Of a stretch of 32,000 bases of DNA, positions 2,044-31,758 are shown piece by piece. The position numbers were made by a program, and so were the translations under genes. Position 1 is the first letter of the stretch, and each line of letters starts with the position of its first letter. The stretch lies in contig AE017199.1 in the NCBI GenBank assembly GCA_000008085.1, forward strand, positions 300,001-332,000, in the 5' to 3' direction. This stretch comes from Nanoarchaeum equitans Kin4-M (GTDB taxonomy: Archaea > Nanobdellota > Nanobdellia > Nanobdellales > Nanoarchaeaceae). A model generated the notes under the pieces. It was not told the DNA's origin and did no database searches. It saw only the letters and a list, made by a program, of their open reading frames with translations.

Positions 2044-3954
2044 TTAGAAGAATTGTTGGTCTTTTCTCATTTCGTTCATGTATTCTCTACTATAGTGAGC
2101 TCTGGTCCAGAATTCTTTCTTTCTATAGGGGTTCCAGTTCTTTAATGGTCTGTAATAACCTATTATTCTAGACCATATCTCTACATCTGTGCTACCACAG
2201 GATGGGCATTGTGTGTACAAACCAGTGTAGCTCTTTTTACAATGGTTACATACTGTTATTGCTGGAGTGAATGACCAATATACTATTTTGGTTTTTAGTA
2301 TTTTCTTGGTTAATGCCGCTAATGCATCTGGTTCTGGTTGTTCTCCTAAGAATATGTGCATCATTACACCTCCAGTAAATTCTGGTTGTACCATAGATTC
2401 TATTCTTATTCTGTCGGACAATTCTAATGCTCCATAATATGGAGCAACGCTTGTTGAGTATATTGGGTTTTCTGGATCGTTTAAATAATTCAATACTTCT
2501 GGGTATTTCTTAGCATCAGCTATTGCCAATTTAGCTGCAGCACTTTCGCCGGGTACTTCTTCAACATTCCATGGAGTGCCATCCATTTTCATCCATTCTC
2601 TAGCATACTTTACTGCAAATCTTACCATGTCTCTCATTAGTTTCGCTGCTTCTAACCAATCTTTCCTAGAACCTTCGAACCATAATTCTGGGTTATTCAT
2701 ATATATAGCTGCAGCTTCTGGTAGGCCTATTATACCTATTGTATTGAAGTGTGAGCTTGGGAAGTCCCATAGATAGGAATGGAAGAACTTGTACATCTCT
2801 TTGTGTGTTCTTATTAGTTTTACATATCTTTCTCTGAACCAGTCTTCTATTTCTTTTATGATTGTTAATTTCTCAGCATATAATTCCCAGAACTTGTCAT
2901 CGTCTTTAGCTTCTAATGCCAACCTTGGTAGGTTTATTGTTGTTACTTGTATAGACCCAGTAACATCTGGCATTGCCCATAGCCCACCGAATCTTTGTTT
3001 TTCTATCTCTTTTATTCTCTCATCTTCATCTTTCTTCTTAACGCTAAATGCGAACTTTAATTCGTTCTTATCTATGTTTATCCTACAACACATTGCGAAA
3101 GAAGCATTGGGATCGACAACATTTGTGTTTAACCAATAGAAGCTACCCCTCTTTGCTGCAGTTTTGAATATTGCTTCATATATTTCTGGATCGTTCCATA
3201 GCATTGGGGCAGAGGCCATTAATGTTGGTATTGGGTATGTAAATGGTTGTCCAATTGCGTCGCCCTCTCTTAATACTTCAGTTAATGCTAATAAGAATAG
3301 TTTTGCTTCTTTTTCGTATTCTCCTAATGGGGCAACCTTTTTACCATCATAATAAGCATAGTCCCCTTCTAATATAGAGGTTGCAGCGTCCATTGTTACT
3401 GTGAAGTTTGTGAATGGAGATTGCATTCCAATCCTAGATGGGTAGTTTAAGTTGAATACCATTCTTTGTATGTTTTGTTTTATTTGTTTGTAGTCTAACC
3501 TATCATTTCTAATGAATGGTCCAGCATACCATTCTACAGAGCTAAATGCTTGTGCCCCAGTAAAGTGTTGTTGTGCAATTATTAAGAAATTAGCTACATG
3601 GTCTACAAATGTATCGAAATGTTTAGCTGGTTTAGATATAACTGTTGGTGTAATCATACCTTTTTCTAATACTCTCGCTAAGGAATGTCCAGAACAATAT
3701 GGAACATATAATGCTAAAGGTAACTTATGTATATAAATGTCTTTGTTTAAGTGTGCTTTCAATGGTCTCTCTGGCATTATTGTTAAATGTTCTTCCATTG
3801 CCTTTTCTAATACATAAGCGAAGAAACCTGTTGGACCAGGGTATTGGTTAGCGTTTTCCAATACTTCTAGGGAATTCCTTTGTACATACTCTGTAAACAA
3901 ATCTTTGGGCTTTGCCTCTACATTTTCTGGTTTTTTAACTTCTATTGGGTTCAT
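2044..3954 (-). CDS. nrdD: anaerobic ribonucleoside-triphosphate reductase (class III RNR)
   Basis: 636 aa. Has the CCRINID active-site loop, the C-terminal Zn ribbon CNHCKKSYTGLYTQCPSCGS and the glycyl-radical motif SRIIGYYRP. Confidence 0.92.
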   Translation of the reverse strand: MNPIEVKKPENVEAKPKDLFTEYVQRNSLEVLENANQYPGPTGFFAYVLEKAMEEHLTIMPERPLKAHLNKDIYIHKLPLALYVPYCSGHSLARVLEKGMITPTVISKPAKHFDTFVDHVANFLIIAQQHFTGAQAFSSVEWYAGPFIRNDRLDYKQIKQNIQRMVFNLNYPSRIGMQSPFTNFTVTMDAATSILEGDYAYYDGKKVAPLGEYEKEAKLFLLALTEVLREGDAIGQPFTYPIPTLMASAPMLWNDPEIYEAIFKTAAKRGSFYWLNTNVVDPNASFAMCCRINIDKNELKFAFSVKKKDEDERIKEIEKQRFGGLWAMPDVTGSIQVTTINLPRLALEAKDDDKFWELYAEKLTIIKEIEDWFRERYVKLIRTHKEMYKFFHSYLWDFPSSHFNTIGIIGLPEAAAIYMNNPELWFEGSRKDWLEAAKLMRDMVRFAVKYAREWMKMDGTPWNVEEVPGESAAAKLAIADAKKYPEVLNYLNDPENPIYSTSVAPYYGALELSDRIRIESMVQPEFTGGVMMHIFLGEQPEPDALAALTKKILKTKIVYWSFTPAITVCNHCKKSYTGLYTQCPSCGSTDVEIWSRIIGYYRPLKNWNPYRKKEFWTRAHYSREYMNEMRKDQQFF

Positions 3955-4030
3955 AGAGATATAGGATGTTATTTTTTAAGTTAGGAGAAACAGGCTTTTC
4001 TTTAAACAATAACGAAGAATTACAATGGTA

Positions 4031-8514: not shown

Positions 8515-8533
8515 AATCCATTAATAGGGTTTT

Positions 8534-8934: not shown

Positions 8935-8942
8935 TTTTTAAA
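8935..8942 (+). promoter_or_regulatory. TATA box of the orphan tRNA 5' fragment
   Basis: TTTTTAAA starts exactly 28 nt upstream of the fragment's nt 1. Confidence 0.55.
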
Positions 8943-8962
8943 CCCTTTTATTATTGAATCTC

Positions 8963-9006
8963 GGGCCGGTAGCTCAGCCTGGTTAGAGCGGCGGTGGCCA
9001 TCCCCC
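8963..9006 (+). tRNA. stand-alone tRNA 5' fragment (acceptor 5' strand, D arm, first ~3 nt of anticodon stem) plus 13-nt GC-rich tail; split tRNA gene, identity not readable (Lys-like)
   Basis: GGGCCGG-UA-GCUC-AGCCUGGUUA-GAGC-G-GCG, then GUGGCCAUCCCCC, then a T-run. There is no anticodon loop, T arm or acceptor 3' strand downstream. It has its own TATA box. Confidence 0.6.
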
Positions 9007-9032
9007 TTTAAATTTTTCTTTTCCTTTCGATA

Positions 9033-9662
9033 ATGTATACTATAGCTAACTCTATCGCTTATGCTATAATTTTCCTATTTTTGATCCCCTATTTATTATA
9101 TAAACTTGGGATAGATGTTGAAAAAGAAACAACAAAGTTTTTTCCGTTAATATTAAGTTTTTTGTTCATAAGGGTTTTTGTTGATATTAATTTGTTGCCC
9201 AATACTTTTTTTACTGTTACTCCAGGGGTTTGGATTTTGGGGATAATAACCTATTTTATTGCAAGGAAAATCCCTATAATACAATGGGTTTTATTTTTTG
9301 CAACATTGTTCGTTTATGCTTTTTATGTTAATATTGATATAAAAGTTTTGGTTTTGTTGCTATATTTTTTTGGTTTGTCTTTAATAATATTGTGTCCTGT
9401 ATTTTTAATAGACAAAAAAATTGCTTTGGCACATTCTTTAGATATCGCAACCACTTTTGTGGGTTTAACCTATTTAGGATTAAAAGAGAAACATGTTTTG
9501 TCTTCTCTAATTGGAGAGCCATTTTTTATTGGATTCTTTAAAATGGTTGTATTATATGTATTATTAAAAACCTACAACAAACCATACATAAGGGCTTCGA
9601 TTTTTGTTTTAGGTTTATTAACAGGGGGGAGAAACTTTTTGATAGAAATAGCTTTAAAATAG
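9033..9662 (+). CDS. polytopic membrane protein, DUF63-like
   Basis: 209 aa, about 6 hydrophobic helices. HSLDIATTFVGLTYLGLKEKHV resembles the DUF63 archaeal membrane family. Confidence 0.5.
   Translation: MYTIANSIAYAIIFLFLIPYLLYKLGIDVEKETTKFFPLILSFLFIRVFVDINLLPNTFFTVTPGVWILGIITYFIARKIPIIQWVLFFATLFVYAFYVNIDIKVLVLLLYFFGLSLIILCPVFLIDKKIALAHSLDIATTFVGLTYLGLKEKHVLSSLIGEPFFIGFFKMVVLYVLLKTYNKPYIRASIFVLGLLTGGRNFLIEIALK
9653..9660 (+). promoter_or_regulatory. TATA box of tRNA-Pro (inside the 3' end of the upstream CDS)
   Basis: TTTAAAAT starts 27 nt upstream of tRNA nt 1. Confidence 0.5.
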
Positions 9663-9679: not shown

Positions 9680-9751
9680 GGGCCCGTAGTCTAGGGGGAA
9701 GACGCCGGGTTCGGGTCCCGGAGATCGCGGGTTCGAATCCCGCCGGGCCCA
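9680..9751 (+). tRNA. tRNA-Pro(CGG)
   Basis: Hand-folded. Acceptor GGGCCCG/CGGGCCC, anticodon stem CCGGG/CCCGG, loop UUCGGGU, T arm GCGGG-UUCGAAU-CCCGC, discriminator A. Confidence 0.95.
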
Positions 9752-15971: not shown

Positions 15972-15991
15972 AAATAAGCAAAATATTAAAA

Positions 15992-16045
15992 AATCAGCAG
16001 CGGCAGAAACTCTTCACTAATCATGGCTCAAGACCTTCATCATCC
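15992..16045 (-). ncRNA. C/D box sRNA; D' guide matches tRNA-Leu(CAA) anticodon loop
   Basis: Minus strand reads GG-AUGAUGA-AGGUCUUGAGCC(12)-AUGA-UUA-GUGAAGA-GUUUCUGCCGCUG(13)-CUGA-UUUUUU. TTTTTAAA lies 28 nt upstream. Confidence 0.75.
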
Positions 16046-18914: not shown

Positions 18915-18966
18915 GATGATGTAGGTGGCTTGACTCTGATTAGTGATGAGAGGAGGTGATACTGAT
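18915..18966 (+). ncRNA. C/D box sRNA; D guide complementary to the 16S 3'-terminal anti-SD sequence
   Basis: G-AUGAUGU(C, 1 mismatch)-AGGUGGCUUGACU(13)-CUGA-UUA-GUGAUGA-GAGGAGGUGAUA(12)-CUGA. The 3' part lies antisense to the last 8 codons of the GTPase gene. Confidence 0.7.
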
Positions 18967-19626
18967 AGGGTATTTAACTTTTATTTTTCCATTAACCCAA
19001 AGTGATAATAATCTAACTGCTGTATCTCGTAATGGCATGCGCCATTTTTTGGATAACTTTTCTAAAAATTCATTTTCATCTTTTGCTTCTATATTAAACC
19101 GCTCTTGCAAATCCTCAAAAATTAGTTTTATTAGTTTTAAAGCCACTCTAATAGGGTTGTCAAGCTTCTCTGGGCTGTAAGAGCCTATTAAAGTTAACAA
19201 CTCTTTATCCTTTAGAGTAAAAATCCCAGGAGTGTCTTTTAAATATATTTTATTTGATAGCTTTATTAATTGGATACCTTTAGTTTTCCCTGGTATAGGA
19301 GCTGTACCGGCAACGTGTCTTCCTCTTAAAGCATTAATTAGAGAGCTTTTCCCAGTATTTGGAAAACCTGCAACGCAAACAATTATTTTGTCTTTATTAA
19401 TATTTTTCGCAACCTCTTTTATTTTATTTCTTAATACTCTTAGCCCTTTTCTTGTTCTAGAGGAAACATACACATCACCATATAAACTTAATAACTCTTC
19501 TGCTTCAACCAAATCGGCTTTGTTTAAAACTTTAATTATTATTTTGTTTAGTTTTTCTATTTTTTTGTTTGGAAATGGTATCCTAGCATCCATTACTTCT
19601 AATATTATATCACAATCATCAAACAT
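18940..19626 (-). CDS. circularly permuted GTPase (YlqF/RbgA/Nug-like ribosome biogenesis GTPase)
   Basis: 228 aa. G4 NKADL precedes G1 GFPNTGKSSLINAL and G3 DTPG, which is the permuted motif order. Confidence 0.85.
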   Translation of the reverse strand: MFDDCDIILEVMDARIPFPNKKIEKLNKIIIKVLNKADLVEAEELLSLYGDVYVSSRTRKGLRVLRNKIKEVAKNINKDKIIVCVAGFPNTGKSSLINALRGRHVAGTAPIPGKTKGIQLIKLSNKIYLKDTPGIFTLKDKELLTLIGSYSPEKLDNPIRVALKLIKLIFEDLQERFNIEAKDENEFLEKLSKKWRMPLRDTAVRLLSLWVNGKIKVKYPISITSSHH

Positions 19627-23036: not shown

Positions 23037-23063
23037 TTTTATCTGCAGCTACTCCTTTCATCA

Positions 23064-23609
23064 CTATTCAGATTGTGCTTTCTCTTCATATAGCCATTGC
23101 AATTTGCCTAGCCCTGCTTGTCTCATCGTTAGATTAATCTTTGTACCTATGGGTTTTATACTTATACCAACTATTTTTGCTTTAACTATATCTTCTATCT
23201 TTAGTATCTTTTTAGTTTTTCTACCAGCCAAAACTTTGTCTTTAGAATAATCAACGATATCATCCATTATTTGAGATATATGTATTAAACCATCTGTAGG
23301 CCCAATATTTACATAAGCACCAAAATCGACTATATTTGATATAATTCCCAAGGTTACTTCTTTTAATATGGGTTTCCAGGTTAAAACTTTAAACCTTACT
23401 TTATAATATATTCCTCCATCGTTATAGCCTAAATATCCTTCACTTTTGTCTAAAATATCTAAAATAGATAAAACCCAACCTAATTGTTTATTTATTTTCC
23501 CTTCATATTGCTTTAATAATGCATTTTTAATTGCTTCTTCGATAGTTTTTTCTTTTAAATCCCTTGGATCAACTCTAACATAGTCTTCTACCTCGCTTAT
23601 AAAAAACAT
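23064..23609 (-). CDS. rpo7: RNA polymerase subunit Rpo7 (E')
   Basis: 181 aa. The N-terminal Rpb7-like fold begins MFFISEVEDYVRVDPRDL. S1 domain has GIISNIVDFGAYVNIGPTDGLIHISQI. Confidence 0.9.
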   Translation of the reverse strand: MFFISEVEDYVRVDPRDLKEKTIEEAIKNALLKQYEGKINKQLGWVLSILDILDKSEGYLGYNDGGIYYKVRFKVLTWKPILKEVTLGIISNIVDFGAYVNIGPTDGLIHISQIMDDIVDYSKDKVLAGRKTKKILKIEDIVKAKIVGISIKPIGTKINLTMRQAGLGKLQWLYEEKAQSE

Positions 23610-25370: not shown

Positions 25371-25422
25371 GTGATGAAAGCGTACCCCACTGATTAGTGA
25401 TGTGAGATGCGCGCGGCTGACA
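25371..25422 (+). ncRNA. C/D box sRNA
   Basis: GUGAUGA(25371-77)-AAGCGUACCCCA(12)-CUGA(25390-93)-UUA-GUGAUGU(25397-403)-GAGAUGCGCGCGG(13)-CUGA(25417-20), followed by a T5 run. Forms a GC-rich island in an AT-rich spacer. Confidence 0.8.
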
Positions 25423-25463
25423 CTACTTTTTAGTTACATGTTGTAGGTCAAAGGTGTCCAAAA

Positions 25464-27361: not shown

Positions 27362-27500
27362 GCCGCCGTAGCTCAGCGGTCAGAGCGCCCGGCTCATAGC
27401 ATGGGCTATGAGCTCTGACCCGAAAGGGGATGATCTCGGGGGCTCTTATGCCCCCTCGTGAGAAACCGGGAGGTCGCGGGTTCGAATCCCGCCGGCGGCA
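27362..27500 (+). tRNA. tRNA with anticodon CAU (elongator Met or Ile2) interrupted by a 66-nt intron after nt 37
   Basis: Exon 1 GCCGCCG-UA-GCUC-AGCGGUCA-GAGC-G-CCCGG-CUCAUA. Exon 2 A-CCGGG-AGGUC-GCGGG-UUCGAAU-CCCGC-CGGCGGC-A. The mature loop is CUCAUAA. Confidence 0.9.
27399..27464 (+). other. tRNA intron (canonical 37/38 position)
   Basis: A BHB-compatible drawing exists. The anticodon stem is followed by a 3-nt bulge A27463-A27465 on the 3' strand, a 4-bp helix C27393-A27396 / U27459-G27462, and a bulge U27397-G27399 on the 5' strand. An internal GC hairpin GGGGGC-UCUUAU-GCCCCC lies at 27438-27455. Confidence 0.7.
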
Positions 27501-28872: not shown

Positions 28873-28898
28873 AGAATAGTTATTCTAAACCATTAAAA

Positions 28899-28950
28899 TA
28901 TCTGAGCCTCTGGCATTCATCATTTCTCAGCAACGACAGGACTCTTCACA
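28899..28950 (-). ncRNA. C/D box sRNA candidate with degenerate terminal boxes
   Basis: Minus strand reads GUGAAGA-GUCCUGUCGUUG(12)-CUGA-GAA-AUGAUGA-AUGCCAGAGGCU(12)-CAGA. Both spacers are 12 nt. The internal D'/C' boxes are canonical; terminal C (UGAAGA) and D (CAGA) are variants. Confidence 0.55.
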
Positions 28951-30965: not shown

Positions 30966-31703
30966 ATGAAACTTATAGGTACAGGTTGGAAAAGTCCTTC
31001 TTTAATAGATGTGCACAATAAAGTTACTTTTACTCTATGGCTTTGTGGGTGTAATTTGAAATGCCCTTTTTGTCATAACTGGAAAATAGCCGAAAAAATA
31101 GGGTGTGGAGAATTAGATATAAATAGATTGTTAGACGAATTAGATAGTGCTTCTTTATTAATAGATTATTTACATGTTACTGGGGGAGAACCCTTATTGC
31201 AATGGGAACCATTATTGGAATTGTTCAAAACCTCTTACGAAAATTATAATGTGGAAAACAGTTTGAATACTAATTTTACATTAACTATCCCATTAAAGAA
31301 GCATTTGGATTCGGGTTATGTTCACCATGTTGCTACCGATCTAAAAGTGCCCCCAAATGAAATGTATGGGGTAGAAAATTGGAAAGCCTTATGGGAATCC
31401 TATTTGAAAAGCCTTTCTCTAATGAAAGAATATGATATCCCCTTAGAATTAAGAATTCCTGTTTCGAGATTCCCATGGGAAGAAAAGAAACCATACATAG
31501 ACCAAGCACTTAAAGCTTTAGGAGACGCAAACTTCTATGTAATAATAAACCCATTATTGAATTACCCAGTTGTAAATCCTAGAAACAAAGAATGGTGTGA
31601 CAAGCATTGTTCTCCTCAAAAAGAAGAATTAAATATAATAAAAGACTATTTAGAGAGCCAAGGAATAAAAGTTTATCTAAAAGGGCACAGCGAATTAATA
31701 TAG
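30966..31703 (+). CDS. nrdG: radical SAM activase, NrdG-like (class III RNR activating enzyme family)
   Basis: 245 aa. LWLCGCNLKCPFCHNW (CX3CX2C) near the N-terminus, and the GGEPLL SAM-binding motif. Confidence 0.7.
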   Translation: MKLIGTGWKSPSLIDVHNKVTFTLWLCGCNLKCPFCHNWKIAEKIGCGELDINRLLDELDSASLLIDYLHVTGGEPLLQWEPLLELFKTSYENYNVENSLNTNFTLTIPLKKHLDSGYVHHVATDLKVPPNEMYGVENWKALWESYLKSLSLMKEYDIPLELRIPVSRFPWEEKKPYIDQALKALGDANFYVIINPLLNYPVVNPRNKEWCDKHCSPQKEELNIIKDYLESQGIKVYLKGHSELI

Positions 31704-31758
31704 CCGGGGCAGTGGGGTCGAGAACCCCGTATGCTAGACCTGGCTACACCACGGGGGC
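31703..31758 (-). tRNA. stand-alone 5' half of tRNA-Glu(CUC) (nt 1-37) plus 16-nt GC-rich 3' extension; split tRNA gene
   Basis: Minus strand reads GCCCCCG-UG-GUGU-AGCCAGGUCUA-GCAU-A-CGGGG-UUCUCG (31758-31719), then ACCCCACUGCCCCGGC (31718-31703). No T arm or acceptor 3' strand follows. Confidence 0.85.

Follow-up and report, generated by a model that had tools for sequence, protein, structure and literature searches.

A tRNA 5' half with its own promoter and likely terminator

The window, by which we mean the whole 32-kb stretch of Nanoarchaeum equitans Kin4-M DNA analyzed here, has a G+C content of about 31%. On its plus strand, with an HTH-protein gene and a DUF63 membrane-protein gene as neighbors, lies a compact element with the following parts.

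8937-8942, plus strand: box A (TATA-like) TTTAAA, within TTTTTAAA (8935-8942), starting exactly 26 nt upstream of G8963
8963-8994, plus strand: 32-nt exon of a tRNA 5' half, assigned below to tRNA-Lys(CUU), tRNA positions 1-30, without a 5' leader
8995-9006, plus strand: GC-rich trailer UGGCCAUCCCCC, 12 nt, which brings exon and trailer together to 44 nt
9007-9017, plus strand: T-rich stretch TTTAAATTTTT, directly 3' of the trailer, the likely terminator of the half-gene
9033-9662, plus strand: CDS of the DUF63 membrane protein, 630 nt, the next gene after the half-gene

An earlier, sequence-only reading had described a tRNA 5' portion at this place, and its parse holds, with GGGCCGG running from 8963. 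The exon reads GGGCCGG (1-7), UA (8-9), GCUC (10-13), AGCCUGGUUA (D loop), GAGC (22-25), G26, and GCGG (27-30), ending at 8994, and thus holds the acceptor 5' strand, a full D arm, G26, and four anticodon-stem nucleotides. Two extra nucleotides in the D loop explain why its 32 nt cover only positions 1-30. The D stem is made of 4 Watson-Crick pairs, and G1, G7, U8, A14, G15 (R15), G18, G19, and A21 are present; in an alignment, every position invariant in the 5' parts of the window's complete tRNAs is also found in the exon. The earlier reading was correct that the fragment ends inside the anticodon stem, but it counted 3 nt of that stem (GCG), and the published exon is one longer, to G30.

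The promoter is also where it had been placed, with TTTTTAAA beginning 28 nt upstream, at 8935, and the TTTAAA inside it at 8937, 26 nt upstream of the exon. This -26 spacing is common to the element, to a second half-gene in the window (the Glu(CUC) 5' half, listed below), and to all 5 complete tRNA genes in the window. With a promoter at tRNA-gene spacing and a T-stretch right after the trailer, the element is laid out as a transcription unit of its own.

No anticodon loop or T arm follows the exon, either in the sequence or in ARAGORN and Rfam output, and the CDS that comes next, at 9033-9662, is the membrane-protein gene of 630 nt that had been described. ARAGORN (4 tRNAs in the window) and Rfam (5 tRNAs) made no tRNA call covering 8963-8994, and the Rfam tRNA model did not report the exon when it was submitted alone either; the sole match, to the tRNA-like part of YrlA, was weak. 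No reverse complement of the trailer is present anywhere in the 32-kb window. By itself, the 44-nt transcript folds no better than shuffled sequences (z = +0.99), as expected of a molecule that needs a partner.

Co-culture and environmental contigs spanning the locus (L001, L002, L125, and L126) are identical to the window, so there is no covariation to draw on. A further contig, L128 (JGI 3300014945, Ga0169448_100393; region 2504-4022), carries Lon protease and histone genes identical to those of the window; downstream, four short unannotated genes (175, 81, 44, and 157 aa) replace Memo, L18A, and the genes that follow them in the window and in the other contigs. Either a rearrangement in the strain or a chimeric assembly could account for this difference.

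The T-rich terminator itself opens with a TTTAAA (9007-9012) that lies exactly 26 nt upstream of the DUF63 ATG (9033), the same spacing as that between box A and the transcription start at tRNA genes. Judged by this spacing, the motif may serve both as part of the half-gene terminator and as the promoter of a leaderless DUF63 mRNA. Some half transcripts in N. equitans are reported to fuse with the neighboring mRNA (Randau 2012, PMC3491384).

Identity as a published half-gene

Placing the element in the published genome depends on the relation between the two coordinate systems, and the other RNA genes in the window supply it.

15990-16045 (minus strand), 18915-18968 (plus strand), 23041-23094 (minus strand), 25371-25424 (plus strand), and 28897-28949 (minus strand): C/D-box sRNAs (sRNA12-16), exact matches to PMC3491384
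27362-27500, plus strand: tRNA-Met gene with a long intron, 62.6 bits in Rfam, missed by ARAGORN
31703-31758, minus strand: tRNA-Glu(CUC) 5' half gene, with a 40-nt exon GCCCCCG...UUCUCG, a 16-nt GC-rich trailer ACCCCACUGCCCCGGC, and box A at -26

Six published RNA sequences, namely those of the five C/D-box sRNAs and the tRNA-Met intron (Randau 2012, PMC3491384, Additional file 2), match the window exactly, on the expected strands, and set the window coordinate as the NC_005213 coordinate minus 300,000, so that the window spans NC_005213 positions 300,001-332,000. In Rfam, sRNA12-16 scored only below the gathering score, matching Pyrococcus-type sR families. The tRNA-Met intron fragment matched exactly at 27399-27461; it is described as stable and folds as a C/D-box sRNA (PMC3491384).

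Six split tRNAs are listed for N. equitans by Chan, Cozen and Lowe (2011, PMC3218864 Table 1). For tRNA-Lys(CUU), the 5' half is given at 308963 on the plus strand, with a precursor of ~44 nt and a mature part of 32 nt, and the 3' half at 380370 on the minus strand, with about 60/43 nt and a ligation site at 30/31 (PMC3218864). Given the offset of 300,000, window position 8963 is 308963 (+), the published start of the Lys 5' half, and the 44 nt of exon plus trailer and the 32 nt of exon seen in the window equal the published sizes of 44/32. A second check against the same table (PMC3218864 Table 1) gave the same agreement, with the Glu(CUC) start at 331758 (-) falling at window position 31758 and the sizes of 56/40 matching. 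Because coordinate, size, sequence context, and promoter all agree, 8963-9006 (+) is almost certainly the 5' half gene of the trans-spliced tRNA-Lys(CUU) of N. equitans Kin4-M. The half-gene has already been published; nothing is discovered here, and nothing is added beyond the published description.

Several expectations of the sequence-only reading can be set against that record. It proposed that the tRNA is split near nt 29-31, with the anticodon on a separate partner and a bulge-helix-bulge at a noncanonical position, and it pointed to tRNA-Lys of N. equitans as the probable identity; the junction is indeed at 30/31, the 3' half is a separate gene at 380370 (-), the hBHBh' motif lies at 30/31, and both the coordinate 308963 (+) and the sizes 44/32 are those of the Lys half (all PMC3218864). 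The cut at 29/30 that it named was off, the published ligation site being 30/31 (PMC3218864). Its term "orphan" is apt within the window, where no partner is present, but not for the genome, where the partner is published at 380370 (-). The Glu(CUC) 5' half is presumably the "first" orphan fragment to which its heading alludes.

The lysine identity itself cannot be read from the 5' half. The first 20 nt of the exon are identical to the start of Thermococcus kodakarensis tRNA-Ala (primer printed in PMC2965216), and the anticodon lies on the 3' half. The description of the acceptor and D arm as "Lys-like" was therefore not diagnostic, and the caveat that accompanied it, that identity could not be read here, was well placed.

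Chance expectation and alternative readings

We compared the window with 200 dinucleotide shuffles of itself, using a loose 5'-tRNA signature (U8, R9, a 4-bp D stem, A14 R15, GG, and A21). Alone, this signature is not rarer than chance, with 3 matches against 4.8 +/- 2.0 in the shuffles. When a box A at -25 to -27 is added, there are 2 matches against 0.115 expected, and both are published half-genes, 8963 (+) and 31758 (-).

These numbers bear directly on whether the element could be a decayed, nonfunctional tRNA pseudogene or the remnant of a recombination event. Such a reading would account for a tRNA part that is just 32 nt long and lacks a partner downstream in cis, and it can draw on the loose D-arm signature alone being no rarer than chance. 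However, the D stem is perfect and the invariant positions are all intact, the promoter sits at functional tRNA-gene spacing with a T-stretch right after a GC-rich trailer, and signature and promoter together are found 2 times against 0.115 expected, each time at a published half-gene. Transcripts have moreover been detected by RNA-Seq (PMC3491384). Integration debris is no better a description of a locus with a promoter, intact invariants, and HTH and DUF63 genes as neighbors, and we consider decay highly improbable. A cis-spliced tRNA, in which a very long intron separates this 5' exon from a 3' exon downstream on the same strand, is just as hard to credit. Other tRNA genes do cluster nearby, with Ser at 8533 and Pro at 9680-9751, but the Pro gene, which is the next tRNA, is complete in itself (68 bits), the T-stretch terminator comes directly after the trailer and is followed by the 630-nt DUF63 CDS, and the window lacks a reverse complement of the trailer. 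Neither ARAGORN nor Rfam reveals a downstream 3' exon on the same transcript, and the published partner maps to the other strand at a distance of 71 kb (PMC3218864).

The remaining alternative concerns the identity of the half and the place of the break. If the exon is read on to 9001, CCA falls at positions 34-36, as GCGGU (27-31), G32, G33, C34, C35, A36, and U37, followed by CCCCC as the trailer, which would make the element the 5' half of a tRNA-Trp(CCA) with a canonical 37/38 split. This is reportedly how the half was first predicted computationally, and Randau, Pearson and Soll, writing in FEBS Lett in 2005, are reported to have used RT-PCR and aminoacylation to re-assign it to Lys(CUU) with a 30/31 junction. 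The Trp reading puts G at position 33 in place of the universal U33 and leaves a trailer of just 5 nt. It also conflicts with the published mature 5' part of 32 nt, ligation at 30/31, and anticodon CUU (PMC3218864), and Trp is not among the six split tRNAs listed by Kanai (2015). We give it next to no weight, and the tRNA-Lys(CUU) half-gene is the reading carried forward here.

Expression and proposed processing

Published work on N. equitans accounts for the layout of the locus. In promoters of nanoarchaeal tRNA genes and tRNA halves, box A is a TTTAAA that precedes the transcription start by 26 nt, tRNA genes have no 5' leaders because the organism is without RNase P, and T-stretches terminate transcription downstream of tRNA genes (PMC3491384). 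The view that the element is an expressed, stand-alone 5' half, which the earlier reading based on its promoter, is borne out by the tRNA-type spacing of box A and by RNA-Seq, in which all 11 half transcripts and their termini were detected (Randau 2012, PMC3491384). In every half, a GC-rich stretch is complementary to a sequence that only its matching half contains, and most half precursors end at that stretch (PMC3491384). For tRNA-Lys(CUU) of N. equitans, a canonical hBHBh' at the 30/31 junction is stated (Chan et al. 2011, PMC3218864). In vitro, the relaxed bulge-helix-bulge of an N. equitans tRNA-Glu precursor is a substrate that the NEQ205-NEQ261 endonuclease cleaves (PMC2761253).

From these reports, a path for the Lys half can be proposed. 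Transcription starts at G1, without a leader, from box A at -26 and gives a transcript of ~44 nt that comprises positions 1-30 and UGGCCAUCCCCC. The trailer UGGCCAUCCCCC would then anneal to the complementary leader of the separately transcribed 3' half, from 380370 (-), which would contribute position 31, the CUU anticodon loop, the T arm, and the acceptor 3' strand. Joined in this way, the halves would form a bulge-helix-bulge at the exon borders, to be cut by the heterotetrameric NEQ205-NEQ261 enzyme directly 3' of G30 and directly 5' of N31; the exons would then be joined by an RNA ligase. The trailer would be lost at splicing.

Proposed geometry of the junction

[quoted passage not shown] With this geometry the leader exceeds the trailer by 5 nt (4 paired and 2 bulged nucleotides, minus 1 bulged trailer base). 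The sizes in PMC3218864 give leaders and trailers of 21/16 for Glu, 17/12 for His, 21/16 for Gln, and 17/12 for Lys in N. equitans, and of 22/17 for Staphylothermus Lys, also 5 nt apart. Among Glu, His, and Gln of N. equitans, the listed junctions are 37/38 and 32/33, the latter being that of Gln (PMC3218864). The 5-nt leader excess of Lys, derived from published lengths, thus fits the canonical geometry.

Applied to the exon and trailer seen here, the published lengths suggest a specific fold. The first bulge would consist of G29, G30, and U+1; the central helix would pair C25 G26 G27 C28 with GCCG of the leader; and the distal helix would pair GGCCAUCCCCC with GGGGGAUGGCC. On the other side, an exon-exon helix would pair A21 G22 A23 G24 with C32 U33 C34 U35 of the CUU anticodon loop, where U33, C34, and U35 follow from function and the published anticodon and C32 is an assumption. 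We infer from this arrangement a leader of the form (A)GGGGGAUGGCC-GCCG-NN, instead of the GGGGGAUGGCCAC proposed earlier, which is probably two bases too long because U+1 should sit in the bulge.

Such pairing would require the D stem to open. The fortuitous complementarity of A21-G24 (AGAG) with C32-U35 (CUCU) could conceivably explain why tRNA-Lys(CUU) is broken at 30/31 in the unrelated Nanoarchaeum and Staphylothermus, an idea that we put forward tentatively and regard as unlikely. If true, 30/31 would be among the few sites in tRNA-Lys(CUU) where a cleavable bulge-helix-bulge can form. The AGAG/CUCU pairing may already be drawn in published figures.

Search for the 3' half and its surroundings

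Scans for the partner with sequence patterns yielded only chance matches or none. In a genome collection, the pattern GGGGGATGGCCAN{30,50}CCGGCCC gave at least 120 chance matches in GC-rich bacteria, with no Nanoarchaeum among the matches listed; the pattern is not specific enough, and the base at its end is probably wrong. A tighter pattern, extended to U33-CUU-A37, gave two matches in metagenomes, both bacterial and due to chance. Neither half was matched in viral contigs, where the scan with the 5' half, included as a control, was likewise empty. In the literature searched, the half-gene sequences were not found in text or supplements and are present only in figures.

The neighborhood of the published 3' half offered another approach, as NEQ434, the reverse gyrase helicase half, lies ~2 kb from it (PMC3491384, Additional file 2). 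Protein and profile searches for NEQ434, run with chimeric queries whose termini were derived from the published flanks, found helicase-only halves of other Nanoarchaeota but not NEQ434; of the protein searches, one scored nothing and another was dominated by low-complexity candidates, and an exhaustive profile search added three further helicase-only halves, none of the three from N. equitans. The Nanoarchaeota proteins recovered (P0004-P0030 and P0045-P0047) are helicase-only reverse gyrase halves; they measure about 570-595 residues, stop immediately after motif VI, and include records named Nanobsidianus stetteri and Nanopusillus, with terrestrial Nanoarchaeota among them. As many Nanoarchaeota have helicase-only halves, the NEQ434/NEQ318-type split appears widespread in the phylum. 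These relatives are nevertheless reported to be without split tRNAs (Podar 2013, as cited in a review).

The same flanks place the NEQ434 frame at genome positions 382,482-384,209 (-), with 575 codons (MKIYYNNVCP...LRALEFKLKLLGIDLHPGSSS*). Its end, so placed, runs 28 nt into the C/D-box sRNA23 on the opposite strand (382,458-382,509), which would give an antisense overlap between the end of the gene and the sRNA.

Relation to known split and intron-containing tRNAs

Compared with the published 5' half gene of the N. equitans split tRNA-Lys(CUU), the element shows no difference, having the same start, strand, 44-nt precursor, 32-nt exon, box A at -26, and T-stretch. The closest counterpart outside the genus is the tRNA-Lys(CUU) of Staphylothermus marinus and S. 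hellenicus, which is the same isoacceptor with the same 30/31 junction and a canonical hBHBh' (PMC3218864). There, too, long perfect trans-pairing follows the hBHBh', and the leader exceeds the trailer by 5 nt (PMC3218864). Unlike in N. equitans, the Staphylothermus halves lie about 4.5-4.8 kb apart on the same strand, as the one split tRNA of each genome; their trailer is 17 nt rather than 12, and the lineage is Desulfurococcales.

Within N. equitans, the tRNA-Glu(CUC) 5' half resembles the Lys half in its box A at -26, its lack of a leader, and its order of exon and GC-rich trailer, and it is served by the same endonuclease and ligase pathway. It differs in having a relaxed bulge-helix-bulge and a 3' half common to two 5' halves (PMC2761253). 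As its junction is at the canonical 37/38, the Glu 5' half carries the anticodon, unlike the Lys half. Noncanonical cis introns of crenarchaeal tRNAs are also comparable, as their bulge-helix-bulge likewise forms at an exon border that is not in the anticodon loop, and a broad-specificity (alpha-beta)2 endonuclease cleaves it (PMC3218864, PMC2761253). In those tRNAs, however, the exons are on one transcript, whereas here the "intron" is divided into a trailer on one transcript and a leader on another, and the two loci lie 71 kb from each other.

An unaided reading of the sequence thus recognized an experimentally validated half-gene and placed its break within one nucleotide. The locus is one of the eleven founding split-tRNA half-genes and has a noncanonical junction, as does Gln (32/33) in N. 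equitans. Split tRNA genes of this kind bear on the origin of tRNA, as an assembly of two minihelix halves versus a product of late fragmentation, and on how far a minimal genome can rearrange its RNA processing.
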